Shown here piece by piece: positions 2,418 through 48,100 of a DNA stretch of 64,000 nt (position 1 is the stretch's first letter; each line of letters opens with the position of its first letter). Both the position numbers and the translations under genes were made by a program. Under the pieces are notes generated by a model. The model saw only the letters and a list, made by a program, of their open reading frames with translations, searched no databases and was not told the origin of the DNA. The stretch is from the NCBI GenBank assembly GCA_964016885.1, contig OZ024745.1, forward strand, positions 16,368,001 through 16,432,000, written 5' to 3'. Source of the stretch: Eledone cirrhosa. Its lineage: Eukaryota.

Positions 2418-2662
2418 TAGGAACGAGTAAGACCCCGACGGCTGAGCTCAAGCCGTTTCGACGGCTAATTCTGGACTAAAAAAAAAAAAAAAAAAAAAAA
2501 ATAATATATATATATTTTTGTAGTCCAGAATTAGCCGTCGAAACGGCTTGAGCTCAGCCGTCGGGGTCTTACTCGTTCCTATTACCCACTCTACTACCCT
2601 AAGTATTGAGTACTTTGGTGCGTTATGGTCCACCTGGCTCCTTACCACATTTCCTTCGTTAT
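2418..2662 (+). mobile_element. Family A short PLE-type element with inverted 5' arm, 3' half of a hammerhead and 3' bulged stem-loop
   Basis: Arms 2418-2480 and 2521-2581 are near-perfect inverted repeats; GAAA-CGGC-ttgagctca-GCCG-TC forms helix III plus a GUC site; flanked by (TA)n on both sides; at least 9 copies or fragments in the window. Confidence 0.7.
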
Positions 2663-3374
2663 ATATATATATATATATATATATATATATATACATATAT
2701 ATATATATATATATATATATATATATATATATATATATATATATATATATATGTGTGTGTGTGTGTGTGTGTGTCAGACAGATATCTATTTCAAGATGTA
2801 AGCAAAGGTATAAAGATGGAAAAATGCCAGAGATGCATGTGTAGATGCGGCGAATATGATGGGGTCGGGGAGACAGCAGATACCTGCATCTACCTGCTGC
2901 TAAAAAGGTATGACTACACATACACATAGACGCAAACACTATATCTATATAAATACACACACACACACACTATATATATACATATATATATATACATACA
3001 CTATATATATATATATATCCATATATATACACATACACTATATATATATATATATATATATATATATATATATATATATACACATACACTATATATATAT
3101 ATATATATACACATACACTATATATATATATATATATATACGCCTAATACTATGCACGTACTCTCAATCGCACGAAGAGAGAGAGATAGAATGACAGACA
3201 GATATAATTATGTATATATAACTAAAGTATGTATGAATATGCATAAGTATCTGTACATGTATAAGTACCTAGTAAATTTATGTTTGCACGTGTATTTATA
3301 TATATTTATATATAGTATAGATATATATATAATTGTACTTGCATATATATATATATATATATATATATATATAT

Positions 3375-3561
3375 ACCAAAGGAATTGTGGTAAAGAACCA
3401 AATGGACCATAACGCACCAGAGTACTCAATACTTAGGGTAGTAGAGTGGGAAATAGAAAAAGTATGACCCCGACGGCAGAGCTCAAGCCGTTTCGACGGC
3501 TATTTCGACCTCTATTTCCTCGACGGCTTGAGCTCTCCCGTCGGGGTCATACTTTTTCCTA
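3375..3561 (-). mobile_element. Family A copy with inverted arm
   Basis: Aligns by eye to 2418-2662; lies between (TA)n tracts. Confidence 0.75.
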
Positions 3562-3952
3562 TATATATATATATATATATATATATATGTGTGTGTGTGT
3601 GTGTCTGTGTGTGTGTGTTTGTGTGTGATGTGGATGATGTGAGTGTTTAATGTATGGCTACCTTCCTGCTGCGTAGTTTCTTACATTTGTGTGATGTTTC
3701 ACACATAAACGAAATACACACCACACACATACTTAGATACAAGTTGCACACACCCATGCACACATATGCACATAGAGAGGCAGTAAGAGACATGCATATA
3801 GAATTACTTTGTGCAAGAACCATGGCAAACATCAAAACGCACGTAAACATATTTTATCTTTCGTGCTGCTTTATTTCTTTATACCTACGTTTATGTTTAT
3901 AAACATAGGAAAGGTGAACTCAGTGCACACTGTAACGGTTTGTGGAGGTAGG

Positions 3953-4234
3953 CATGGCTAGATTTAGACCTTTGGAAGCCCGGGGCACTTCAGGTTTGTG
4001 CCCCCCCCCCTCAATTTTTTTTTTTTATATATATCAAAGTTAACTTGGGTTAAGTAATTGCAATTGAAAAGTCATACATACGGGTATTAAATTAAACAAA
4101 TTCTAACATCCTAAAACTTAAAAAGACCAGTAGAGAGCACAAATAAATCACTATAGCCGTCGCTGGTCGGGTTCCCTCAGAAGGGAGCCCGGAGCAATTA
4201 TCTCCTTTGCCCCTCCCCATTAAATCCAGCACTG
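3953..4234. mobile_element. hAT-like MITE
   Basis: Degenerate TIRs CATGGCTAGATTTA / TAAATCCAGCACTG; related to the mini copy at 63918-63972, which has an 8-bp TSD. Confidence 0.55.
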
Positions 4235-4517
4235 CAGGCATGGCAAAAGTGTTAAGAAGTTTGTTTCGTATTCATGTTATTCTAGTTTCGATCTCAGTAT
4301 GTGGCATATTTGGCAGGTTTCTTAGCTCCGCTTCGATCTAAGAATTGTGAAACTGAGGAGACGGAATTATGTGGAAATGCTCCGGTTCACTTGTACCTAC
4401 AATACATATATACAATTGTACTTACATATTGTACGTACATATTGTGTCATGCTGTTTCTGTCTGAAGATAACATTAGGTATACACGTGTTTGTTGAATAT
4501 TCAGATACCTATCTTAA

Positions 4518-4737
4518 CCCTTTAGCATTCACATTACTCTGTATATGCTATTATATTTTCATGGTAAAGGCTTTACCTCGCATAATTATCTCACATAATA
4601 TCGAATCTATGAGATTTTGAAAGTATTTATTTTGAGAACAATACCTTAACATCAGTTTAAGCTACCAGTTATAACCAGTTTCAACAGAAAGAGGTAGAGA
4701 ATTCTGGCCGGTTTTGGCCGGTTTGAACATTAAAGGG
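4518..4737. mobile_element. piggyBac-like MITE
   Basis: TTAA|CCCTTTAG ... TAAAGGG|TTAA: TTAA TSD and CCC/GGG termini. Confidence 0.75.
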
Positions 4738-4759
4738 TTAAAATACTTTCTGATTTAGG

Positions 4760-44770: not shown

Positions 44771-44799
44771 TGTATGTATGTATGTATGTATGTATGTTG

Positions 44800-45416
44800 T
44801 GTCAGGTCACCAGTTGGTGCTACTGGTAACATGTATCCCAGTACAACCTGTCCCATGGTCGGGTCGTTGGCGACTAAACTGGCAACCCCACCAAGGTTTC
44901 TTGGTGAGGAGGGTGACTTTGGACATCCTGCAGGACTAAAAACAAAACCTGTCAAAGGGCAAAGGAGCTCCTTAGAGTCAATGGCCATCCAAAATCACTG
45001 GGAGAGATGACCCCTTAGCCTTTGTCAAGGCAGAATTCTAGGAGAAAGAAAACTCTGATATAACACCTGCAACCCTGATGGTATCCAATGATGTTGACTT
45101 GTTCTTCTTTTTGGTAAATATTATCTTGGTTAAGAGAGTGGGACTGGCTTTGTGCAGTGCCTTTGCTCACTATAAAAGCTTCACGGCACAGGCATTGCTT
45201 TATATCTGGAGATCTCTGATCTCTCTGCACTTGTCGTCACATGGTACCATGGGCCCAGCACTATGTGTCAATAATTGTCACAGGTGTAGTGTTTGTACCA
45301 GAGTTTTCAAGTCGCTGGCTGGGCTAAAAAGTCACACTCGTTCAGCGCATTGGTAGGGGTTCTCCTACATGGATATAAAGTAGTAGCCGTACTCGAAAAC
45401 GAGTTGGCAGCCACCA
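44800..45416 (+). mobile_element. Bipartite RTE derivative, second full-length unit
   Basis: Nearly identical to 44161-44770 with the same 5' start TGTCAGGTCACCAG. Confidence 0.8.
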
Positions 45417-46956
45417 TTTATGTATGTATGTATGTATGTATGTATGTATGTATGTATGTATGTATGTATGTATGTATGTATGTATGTATGTATGTATGTA
45501 TGTATGTATGTACGTATGTATGTATGTACGTACGTATGTACGTATGTACGTATGTACGTATGCATGTATGCATGTATGTATGTATATATGTATGTATGTA
45601 GGTATGTATGTATGTATGTATGTATGTATGTATGTATGTATGTATGTATGTATGTATGTATCCATAAAGAATTCTATCCGAAGTTCTAATGCCTCAGTCA
45701 ATTCGTTGTCTTTTGACTTAGATATACATCATTAAATGTTCTGTGAAACGTTTAGCAATGCAGATCTAAGTCAAACTGTTAATACACCCTTCACATACAT
45801 ATATTACACACTCATATATACACATATATACATATATCTTCAACATGGCTGACTGAAGACACAGGTGCTTTATCTAAAAAAACTTATTTTTCGTTTCTTC
45901 CTTTTCTCACTCCTTATATTTCTATTGTATCTTTTATTTCTCATTCTATCTTCTAATGAAGGGCTAGTGTCGGAAACGTAGGCCACTTTTCCGACTATAT
46001 CAAGCGCTAAACTAATATATTTCTTCATTGTACTGTGTTGTTGTTTCCCTTTACCTTTTTCATGTATATATACATATATACGTACCTATACATATATATA
46101 TATATACAAACCTGAAAATATAACAATTTTAAAAGCCCATGCAATGTTTGCATCCGTCATAACCTAAACATACATTACTAAACATATTAAACACACATAA
46201 TAGTTTTGTCTTCTAACAACTTCACCGTATTGTTTAACTACATTCCGCCGATGAATGTTTCTTTTTTCATAGAAAGAATTCAAATAATTAGAAAAGTAAG
46301 ATAATATGGAGGTATGCCAAGTTAAGTGATCCTACTTGTTTGTAAAACGAGGAAATATATTACAAGCCAGCCTAGCAACGTCTCTATTAGTCGTTTGACT
46401 ATTTTTGTGATATTTAATAAAGAATGGCAGACATCCTTCCATCCATGGGCACTTAACTCCTGATGGAATCGTACAGGTGCCAACCTAACATTCGGCGTAC
46501 CTTCGATATTTAACCCAGTCACAGCCCATCCTCATCTATGTCTGTACACAGCCAGCTTCTTATATATATCGTCAATAGATCGACTTTCGTCAAATCAGAC
46601 CGAGGAAACAATGTTTTCGTCGGTCTTTCTAATTGCTAATACTATCTATCGGTCGCAACTCCATGTTTTCTATTTAATTTTGGTTGGAGTTCATTTATGT
46701 TTATTGCCTCTGTGATTTGTCTAAACATTGCGTCTTGAATGGAACAGCAACATCACAACTTACAATTAAGGACAACATGAAAACACACACACAAATAGAA
46801 CAAACAACCAACCAGTAACAAATAAATAAACAAATATAGACACACACAAACACCTGGATGTAACACATGCGCAAACTAAGCACACAACACACACAAAAAC
46901 AAGATGGCGTAGGACAGAACAAAGGAGAGACACAAAAACAAAGAAAATAATCCCCA

Positions 46957-46999
46957 GTCACTGAAGAGGTCACAGCATGTGTGACGAAAGAACTTTGAC
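46957..46999 (+). ncRNA. Minimal hammerhead-like motif with one unpaired G before helix II
   Basis: gtca CTGAAGA g-gtcaca-gcatg-tgtgac GAAA G-aa-C TT tgac. Confidence 0.6.
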
Positions 47000-47471
47000 A
47001 ATATATGAACAATCGTCTGGTTGTGGAACCAACCAACCGGAAATTTATAAATTCCTAAATTTATAAATTTAATTTATAATAAATTGAAGTGAAAGCAATT
47101 GGTGCGTGTGTTTCTTGTTGGCAACATGACCCTCCCAAAGTATAACAATATATATATATATAAAGATAAAGTGAAAAAGTGTACATCAAGTGGTGCGTAT
47201 ATTTTTTAATGGCAATACTGATAACATTACCATCCTTAAATATGATGATAACGGTTTCAACACAAGATCTCACACTAAGAATCATGCAAAGCAAATATAT
47301 ATATGTATGTATATATATATATATATATATATATATATATATATATATATATATATATATATATATATATATATATATATATATATATATATATATATAT
47401 ACATATATATACATATATATATACATATATATATATACATATATATATATATATATATTTATATATATATA

Positions 47472-47737
47472 TATTTATTAAAATAACAGATTAAAGTTTA
47501 AGCAAATAATCACTGCTTTCACCCTTAACGGGATCTTCTGAAAGAAAAAAGTCAATTGACTGATTGACTGTTTTAGTTTCAGAAGATCCCGTTAAGGGTG
47601 AAAGCAGCGATTCTTTGCTTAAACTTTAATCTGTTATTATTAATAAATATTTGCTCTACGGTTCTTATATATCTGATATATATTTATCCTTATCGAGCCC
47701 TCTTTGGATTTTAATCTTCAAATTTATTATTATTACT
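47472..47737 (+). mobile_element. Family J copy with inverted arm; CAGAAGA hammerhead at 47575-47625 and inverted copy at 47495-47543
   Basis: Inverted arms 47472-47543 / 47577-47650; between (TA)n tracts. Confidence 0.8.
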
Positions 47738-47859
47738 ATATATATATATATATATATATATATATATATATATATATATATATATATATATATATATATA
47801 TATATATATATATATATATATATATATATAACATATATATATATATATAATTACATAGT

Positions 47860-48100
47860 AAACAGCACAATATAATTATTTAATTGTCGAAGGTTTCAAA
47901 AATCTAGATGATTCTTGCAAAAAACACGTAGCTCGTTCGTCAGACAAAGCAATTATGTTTTGGATATAAATTTTGAAACGAACAATCTTTCTTGCAAGAA
48001 GCATCTATTTTCTTGAGACCTTCGATAATGAAAATTATTATTTTGTGTTTTTATGTAATTAAATAACTCTGTACAATACATAGAGCACTCGTCTTTCCTC
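47860..48100 (+). mobile_element. Degenerate inverted-arm PLE-type element
   Basis: Imperfect inverted repeat 47865-47940 / 47975-48052; 3' bulged stem-loop ACTC-TGTA-caa-TACA-ta-GAGC at 48066-48086. Confidence 0.5.

Follow-up and report, generated by a model that had tools for sequence, protein, structure and literature searches.

Why should one small fold recur near the 3' ends of repeats that otherwise cannot be aligned? The question is raised by a 64,000-nt stretch of the Eledone cirrhosa genome (contig OZ024745.1, positions 16,368,001 to 16,432,000; the whole stretch is called the window below), in which a first-pass annotation had reported a bulged stem-loop downstream of hammerhead ribozymes in at least seven repeat families (designated by letters such as A, C and E). 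It had interpreted the stem-loop as a cis-acting RNA signal by which non-coding mini elements borrow the reverse transcriptase (RT) of Penelope-like elements (PLEs). Our analysis indicates that the hairpin is real and belongs to a known transposon clade, the Hydra-clade PLEs, as a cis element that has apparently not been described before, and that it covaries and is tied to the insertion ends of these elements. From these sequence comparisons we consider it probable (roughly 0.65) that the bulged hairpin is an RNA docking site at which the RT-endonuclease of the element starts reverse transcription just upstream.

All eight hairpin sequences listed in that annotation were located at their coordinates in the window (Table 1) and can adopt the same bulged fold, which comprises a four-pair RCTC/GAGY helix (R, purine; Y, pyrimidine), a 2-nt bulge on the 3' side and a variable upper helix. 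The fold is the minimum-energy structure of six of the eight sites folded alone; site C and the site at 48066 fold otherwise. The latter combines ACTC with GAGC and thus has an A.C mismatch at the bottom pair, and the J hairpin contains one internal mismatch. A strict scan of the window returned 19 matches with at least three upper pairs, whereas two sets of 60 shuffles averaged 0.35 and 0.6 matches (at most 2 and 3); nine of the 19 rows are family A, and site C escaped owing to its short loop. A sample of 80 evenly spaced 10-kb stretches (800 kb) of this ~3.0-Gb genome contained 54 T-A-closed hairpins with a TT or TC bulge against 4.4 in five block shuffles, 29 C-G-closed hairpins against 15, and 176 hairpins of any bulge against 110-147. 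The hairpin is hence more frequent than in shuffled DNA, as the first-pass annotation had expected of a genuine signal. The 99 matches in the sample with a TT, TC or TA bulge form 37 clusters, partly chance singletons.

When pairing was not demanded, the modal bottom pair of 24 genome clusters was A-T in 13, G-C in seven, A.C or G.T in none and another combination in four, which bears out the reported co-variation of R and Y (Fisher p 1.3e-5, calculated on clusters that are mutually related). The upper helix had been described as opened by a T-A pair; this applies to 16 of the 24 clusters, and in the other eight a C-G pair stands in its place. The hairpin consensus reads RCTC-Y..R-T[TCA]-GAGY-RCT. 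The hammerhead reported upstream of the hairpin has a canonical core in families C, H and I and a variant core in E and J, and the family A copies of the window retain just its 3' half. The complete core in L239 and other family A parents shows the U3-A8 covariant in place of C3-G8, as described for Schistosoma PLEs (PMC4209133), and the E and J hammerheads carry other core changes at position 4. A link of the hairpin to hammerheads as such was dismissed, since the motif was present in 0 of 19 copies of a hammerhead family tied to a Neptune-like open reading frame (ORF; L290, assigned by eye), a control of one family. This RT-GIY-YIG-linked family, found in (TA)n at 12400-13220 and 19800-20380 of the window, seems to have its ends clustered at two places too, and an analogous signal may operate there.

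The elements that carry the hairpin were identified through their proteins. RT and GIY-YIG fragments of the window match proteins bearing RWK, DKT and CxCX5C, and these motifs, the last one in the linker, are diagnostic of the Hydra clade (Craig et al. 2021, PMC8557442). The protein of locus L111 contains all three, and the parents of families A and J have RWR and DKT. Copies with intact ORFs of 713-714 aa and no internal stop are plentiful in this genome; the 714-aa product is encoded by a single ORF, RT first and GIY-YIG at the C-terminus, and shares 43% identity with protein P0002. Pfam yielded no match for four protein fragments of the window, and the domains were assigned from motifs read by eye. 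By motifs and domain order the hairpin carriers are Hydra-clade PLEs; the tree made here held Hydra-like proteins only. The agreement with the published clade (PMC8557442) includes (TA)n targets and a hammerhead in the pseudo-long terminal repeat (pLTR), the latter with variant cores in A, E and J. Units of ~4.3 kb (L141) and 3.5 kb (A parent), which have long 3' untranslated regions (UTRs), exceed the <3 kb that is typical, not diagnostic, of Hydra elements. Naiad, our first guess for the host, was ruled out by the C-terminal endonuclease (EN) and the CxCX5C linker. In the intact 714-aa family (L141-L147) two hammerheads per 4.3-kb unit lie ~1.3-1.5 kb apart across a TA/TG-rich 3' UTR, and hairpins follow the second hammerhead only.

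The 5' UTR of intact copies is arranged in the order hammerhead, hairpin 1, ~46 nt, hairpin 2 and ATG, and insertions of this family halt ~40 nt past hairpin 1, a few bases short of hairpin 2. The presence of a second hairpin in intact copies led to the prediction that the 'mini' families of the window likewise continue into hairpin 2 in tandem copies. A pattern composed of the family tail and RCTCY matched this genome 417 times for A, 473 for J, 131 for C, six for E and four for H. Of 20 family A loci, 15 were read; in all 15, hairpin 2 lies ~6 nt beyond the usual end, and most of them reach a Hydra-type ORF. Among five J loci seen in full, four contain hairpin 2 and the ORF start and one has a deletion there; all six E loci contain both, with a base of hairpin 2 altered in two of them. 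Family C also runs on into a Hydra ORF. Because read-through copies continue into Hydra-type RT ORFs, the A, C, E and J copies in the window are 5'-truncated 3' ends of ORF-bearing Hydra PLEs that have the motif in common by descent. The double occurrence had escaped the first-pass annotation. The hairpin seen inside insertions is hairpin 1; hairpin 2 is not copied into the insertion and can be seen only where a parent or tandem copy is at hand.

The idea that non-coding mini elements borrow the PLE RT is consequently not supported for A, C, E and J, to which the picture of a non-autonomous element, with short tandem units and no coding parent, does not apply. It survives for locus L094, where positions 1-3600 consist of 615-nt non-coding units in tandem; the unit is too small to encode an RT and has three matches to the covariance model described below. 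L094 is a candidate non-autonomous Hydra partner, and non-autonomous users of the hairpin may thus exist. One of its model matches is nested in a long hairpin, and dispersed copies end 9 nt before this long hairpin.

An alignment of 44 proteins led to 78 marine metagenome loci, drawn from the 80 best among 456 confirmed stretches. A 5' UTR of 90 nt or more was available for 58 of the loci, which were grouped into 42 families, two of which (L171 and L182) proved near-identical on a later look; viral contigs contained no relative. The proteins are only ~45-55% identical, whereas the hairpin arms are nearly invariant. The 3' arm occurs in the 5' UTR twice in 32 families, once in nine and not at all in one, and for the complete hairpin the corresponding numbers are 28, 12 and two; some single-hairpin families have a short or interrupted UTR. 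Matches were found in one of 517 ORF-internal control windows and in seven of 42 reverse-strand UTRs, the latter being no clean control since GAGYRCTC is near-palindromic. Hairpins 1 and 2 are separated by 37-59 nt in the 28 families with both, and the 3' arm of hairpin 2 lies 19-58 nt ahead of the ATG. The inner part of the hairpin ranges from 6 to ~80 nt and is self-complementary throughout. The motif was also recognized by eye in published Hydra consensi (PMC8557442), namely in coral Hydra-2_Amil and in sea cucumber Hydra-1_Ajap (twice) and Hydra-2_Ajap (once). The copepod Hydra consensus has a compensatory GCCC/GGGC lower helix in its 5' UTR and a mismatched copy at its 3' end, and the octopus Hydra consensus contains a wobble variant of the motif (both by eye). 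Hairpin 2 is long in the Hydra family of L139 and L157.

Base pairing was assessed with arms picked from sequence alone. In hairpin 1, Watson-Crick pairing holds for the opening pair in all 31 cases (17 T-A, 14 C-G; shuffled mean 15.7), for the next pair in 21 of 30 cases (11.0) and for the third pair in 17 of 21 (6.5). The signal of hairpin 2 is weaker, with 35 of 37 (33.2) at the opening pair and 18 of 35 (10.7) at the next. On a quick IQ-TREE tree of 31 proteins the opening pair of hairpin 1 switches six times, four of the switches being forced by well-supported branches. Ten hairpins of equal length are 96% paired, and their covariation score is higher than in all 500 shuffles. A covariance model trained on these ten metagenome hairpins only recovered in the window six copies of family A (E 3e-5 to 3e-4), family I (0.002), the 48066 site (0.036), E2 (0.26), E (0.82) and C (1.5), and missed H and J. 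One might object that no structure is under selection and that the hairpins are leftover ancestry or chance matches in AT-rich repeats, given that all tested carriers belong to one clade with sequence common by descent and that copy counts inflate the enrichment. The twin counts, the flips on the tree and the pair-count shuffles contradict this explanation: arms stay nearly invariant next to diverged proteins, the opening pair has repeatedly flipped in a compensatory manner, and control windows are almost devoid of matches. We regard it as extremely improbable.

The positions of the hairpins coincide with the positions at which insertions end. We denote the site just before hairpin 1 as S1 and the site just before hairpin 2 as S2. 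Of 42 alignments of a metagenome locus 3' region to the 5' UTR of its own family, 21 were kept after removal of 12 that extend into the ORF, eight cut off by the end of a contig and one internal duplicate. In 16 of the 21 the insertion end lies within -8 to +1 nt of a hairpin start; some families contribute more than one of the 21, and BLAST carries the ends too far by a few AT bases. For the window and the 800-kb sample together, TA-followed ends fell on S1 or S2 in 35 of 43 cases (family A), 23 of 25 (J), 15 of 15 (C) and five of eight (L111 family); the S1 and S2 end windows together make up ~16% of positions, and S2 of family C was defined from a degenerate arm. Family A ends occupy single offsets, 12 at one and 23 at another. 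The spacer length differs between families (J, ~41 nt; L111, ~46; A, ~54; E, ~95), and the long end stays beside hairpin 2. A fixed ruler from hairpin 1 was dismissed on these grounds, as the end keeps next to hairpin 2 despite a spacer of ~41-95 nt.

Outward-facing inverted insertions combine S1 with S2 in 23 of 31 pairings (22 distinct insertions, one being a cross-pairing of neighbours), and neither S1+S1 nor S2+S2 occurred; the other eight have at least one unclassified end. Their short end aligns with hairpin 1 and their long end with hairpin 2. Inverted, 5'-truncated copies and a one-sided 'tail' have been described for PLEs (PMC8557442). The S1+S2 pairing therefore shows that the tail is the stretch between the two sites, i.e. 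hairpin 1 plus spacer. With a length of ~60-130 bp and a hairpin bounding it on either side, it differs from the tail of 30-40 bp, ascribed to EN resolution, of Craig et al. (PMC8557442). At the junctions the parent has the sequence TA or TAT, and base pairing of this sequence with a (TA)n primer is conceivable.

Such pairing could also make the ends incidental. The hairpins would then serve another step, such as translation control, ribonucleoprotein assembly or folding of the hammerhead, and ends would arise there only since the AT-rich single-stranded stretches before them pair best with (TA)n primers or since the RT cannot start in a helix. Hairpin 2 is indeed close to the ATG (19-58 nt), the 14 nt upstream are 73-78% A+T, and family C, which lacks a proper hairpin 2, still ends sharply at a second site. 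These UTRs nevertheless contain many AT-rich stretches and the ends are confined to single positions; moreover, the strict S1+S2 pairing needs a joint engagement of both sites. This explanation appears very unlikely to us.

From the ends, the conservation and the covariation we infer instead that the protein binds the hairpin, and that it does so in the RNA. A tandem transcript would be recognized through the invariant CTC/GAG helix and the bulge, the apical part being irrelevant. The protein would nick (TA)n DNA, and priming would use a short stretch with UA that precedes the hairpin by ~3-8 nt. S2 would serve for one DNA end and S1 for its partner, possibly each through one subunit of a dimer. 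Copying from S2 would yield a product with hairpin 1 and the spacer, i.e. the one-sided tail, and copying from S1 a product without them. As a start at S2 would leave hairpin 2 uncopied, only tandem or read-through copies could serve as templates. A precedent is the Poseidon PLE of anole, whose RT started in vitro at two internal sites that bound the tail and needed RNA 3' of these sites (Frangieh et al. 2024, PMC11167929). Its protein cuts both strands of AT-rich DNA and is predicted to form a dimer, and no binding motif was identified (PMC11167929). The Hydra geometry fits the Poseidon starts because a conserved hairpin sits immediately 3' of each end site; the AT-rich targets are a further likeness. 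A more specific version, in which two docking hairpins each hold one subunit of a dimeric RT-endonuclease and priming at either end of the (TA)n break takes place at a fixed internal position directly ahead of a hairpin, is tentative, and we would give it somewhat less than even odds.

Several observations weigh against the docking of an RT at these hairpins. Five of the 21 metagenome ends lie elsewhere, and in four of 16 comparisons (L163, L181, L185 and L236) 5' boundaries are situated 7-11 nt before a hairpin. The family C parent lacks a complete hairpin 2, having a GAGC-like arm with one change and an unpaired ACTCT, and still its second end is sharp. Hairpin 2 was found in none of the four family H pattern matches. 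In the metagenome set the opening pair of hairpin 2 is nearly constant (34 of 37 C-G, p 0.05), many second hairpins have just one upper pair, and the lower four pairs are invariant and contribute no covariation. A strand test meant to distinguish RNA from single-stranded DNA was weak (three G.U vs one A.C). By eye, the published Hydra-1_Amil consensus contains a degenerate copy only, and the Poseidon template as printed in PMC11167929 is without such a motif. In this genome the bulge of hairpin 1 is 1 nt long in the L139 family, whose hairpin 2 is imperfect.

The weak strand test leaves room for an action at the DNA level, in which the endonuclease recognizes the hairpin in single-stranded cDNA or element DNA and cuts a few bases 5' of it, so that the ends are set at resolution. 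Craig et al. (PMC8557442) ascribed the tail to EN-mediated resolution, the EN of Drosophila Penelope needed tail DNA for recognition (as cited in PMC11167929), GAGYRCTC is near-palindromic, and some 5' boundaries lie at the same sites. A duplex DNA site, however, would hardly have an inner part that varies from 6 to ~80 nt and yet remains self-complementary. The in vitro RT starts of Poseidon coincide with its genomic ends (PMC11167929), and the final S2 product does not contain hairpin 2. We judge DNA-level action unlikely.

The 5' boundaries before hairpins are not explained by priming alone. They would be accounted for, together with the 3' ends, if the hairpin guided a cleavage of the RNA just 5' of it, by an element protein, a host nuclease or self-cleavage, and target-primed reverse transcription proceeded from the new RNA 3' end. 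Published Hydra consensi start 2-6 nt before the hairpin (by eye), and read ends in RNA sequencing of the anole element coincide with the start sites (PMC11167929). Against cleavage, initiation was internal in the one PLE tested in vitro, with a product size independent of the RNA 3' end (PMC11167929), and no ribozyme match was obtained from Rfam in 12 loci. This alternative likewise seems improbable to us. Some elements (L163, L181, L185, L236, L124 and L150) start a few bases before a hairpin, where others end.

The proposed docking of an RT at the hairpin invites comparison with known RNA signals. In stringent long interspersed elements (LINEs) and their short interspersed elements (SINEs), and in the R2 3' UTR, a 3' RNA structure is recognized by the element RT. 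The Hydra hairpin would resemble them as a cis RNA structure that is bound by the RT and fixes where target-primed copying begins. LINE and R2 signals, however, lie upstream of the start, are copied, and are used by an RT that starts from the RNA 3' end, whereas the Hydra hairpin lies downstream of an internal start, remains uncopied and is duplicated; insertions end 5' of the hairpin that marks them, and a signal within the copied 3' end was not found. In telomerase RNA, the internal template used by a related RT is delimited by a protein-bound helix, a boundary element located 5' of the template that stops copying. The Hydra hairpin is located 3' of the start. Selenocysteine insertion sequence (SECIS) elements contain an AUGA/GA quartet and an apical AAR and accompany an in-frame UGA in the ORF. 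None of these features was detected in the hairpin sequences, the intact ORFs are without internal stop, and 12 loci gave no such Rfam match. Iron-responsive elements have a CAGUGN loop and a C bulge on the 5' side; the loop here is free and the bulge lies on the 3' side. The first-pass annotation had rightly set the hairpin apart from both.

Hammerhead-bearing repeats known as non-LTR retrozymes have been proposed to be moved by PLE proteins (PMC7229834; bioRxiv 10.64898/2026.07.22.740005), and the text consulted of both papers names no recognition signal. Retrozymes are non-autonomous repeats, unlike the four window families A, C, E and J, which are truncated coding elements. As already suspected in that annotation, no description of the hairpin was found in the literature, where figures, Repbase entries and subscription papers could mention it. 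A term search of the text and supplement of PMC8557442 for 'hairpin', 'bulge' and 'stem-loop' found none of them, although its consensi contain the motif. Rfam gave one weak chance match and nothing relevant for 12 metagenome loci, and the 150 listed of 264 Rfam matches in the window were microRNA-like or AT-repeat matches below the gathering score.

PLEs, the sister group of telomerase RTs, still pose the question of how template and start site are chosen. Two internal starts were found in the only in vitro study of a PLE, which did not identify the binding motif (PMC11167929). A duplicated, covarying hairpin that predicts, in dozens of families, where both ends of an insertion lie opens this question to mutagenesis, for which intact 714-aa ORFs exist. 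The hairpin is also a protein-independent marker for the annotation of Hydra PLEs and their non-autonomous partners, and in this genome many repeats that look like 'mini elements' are coding elements in truncated form. If docking of a dimer were correct, the hairpin would be the first identified RT recognition signal of any PLE. It would then account for the inverted pLTR, for a tail on one side only and for the dependence on tandem source copies, and would represent a portable 25-nt tag steering a telomerase-like RT onto any RNA.

Table 1 Hairpins and associated elements in the window (position 1 is the first nucleotide of the 64,000-nt stretch)
Feature	Position	Strand	Remark
Family A hairpin 1	2588..2611	+	Insertion end ~46-48 nt downstream; parent runs on into hairpin 2 and Hydra ORF
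Inverted, 5'-truncated family A insertion in (TA)n	2419..2657	.	Left arm end 5-7 nt before hairpin 1 (S1); right arm end at S2
Type I hammerhead 3' half (GAAA, stem III, cleavage site), family A	2540..2566	+	5' half lost by truncation
Family A hairpin 1, another copy	3424..3447	-	Strict scan and covariance model
Family A hairpin 1, another copy, TC bulge	6748..6771	-	Strict scan and covariance model
Family A hairpin 1, another copy	24033..24056	-	Strict scan and covariance model
Family A hairpin 1, another copy	26564..26587	-	Strict scan and covariance model
Family A hairpin 1, another copy	34232..34255	-	Strict scan and covariance model
Broken Hydra-type RT thumb, CxCX5C linker and GIY-YIG remnant, 5' of family E	20378..21621	+	
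Family E variant hammerhead core	22780..22811	+	
Family E hairpin 1	22871..22904	+	Parent: hairpin 2 ~95 nt on, then Hydra ORF
Hairpin 1 of E-related family	26965..26998	-	
Family C hammerhead core	25383..25406	+	
Family C hairpin 1	25478..25496	+	Parent: Hydra ORF, without complete hairpin 2
Family H hammerhead, long stem II	29217..29312	-	
Family H hairpin 1	29115..29148	-	Parent or hairpin 2 not found among 4 pattern matches
Family I hammerhead core	30846..30919	+	
Family I hairpin 1	31095..31119	+	
Family J hairpin 1	34950..34995	+	Parent: hairpin 2 begins 5-6 nt past J end, then 713-aa Hydra open frame
Hairpin 1, second J copy	47653..47698	+	Inside inverted S1+S2 insertion 47471-47735
Hairpin 1, A.C mismatch, kin of intact 714-aa family L111	48066..48086	+	
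Hairpin 1 of further family, absent from first-pass annotation	18117..18142	+	Scan and covariance model
Hairpin 1 with C-G opening pair, absent from first-pass annotation	52200..52219	-	Covariance model
Broken Hydra PLE, 3' end just past hammerhead, without hairpin	38275..40638	-	Compatible with an end at S1; family assigned by eye

Hairpin 1 of family I is interrupted by a 91-nt piece of an abundant repeat (31000-31090 of the window), which we take to be a SINE-like 3' end; a 16-nt target duplication (30984-30999 and 31091-31106) restores the hairpin. A further hammerhead family at 53289-53610 and 62181-62355 has a hairpin that is apparently opened by C-G and has an inner part of ~60 nt (by eye). 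At 37900-38270 a copy of family A, a fragment of the H tail in inverted orientation and a Hydra element 3' end are nested, each of them sitting in the (TA)n of another. Repeats of 400-600 nt with 92-97% identity (16459-17004, 42666-43074 and 44161-45412) lie beside open frames that by eye resemble the C-terminus of a non-LTR retrotransposon.

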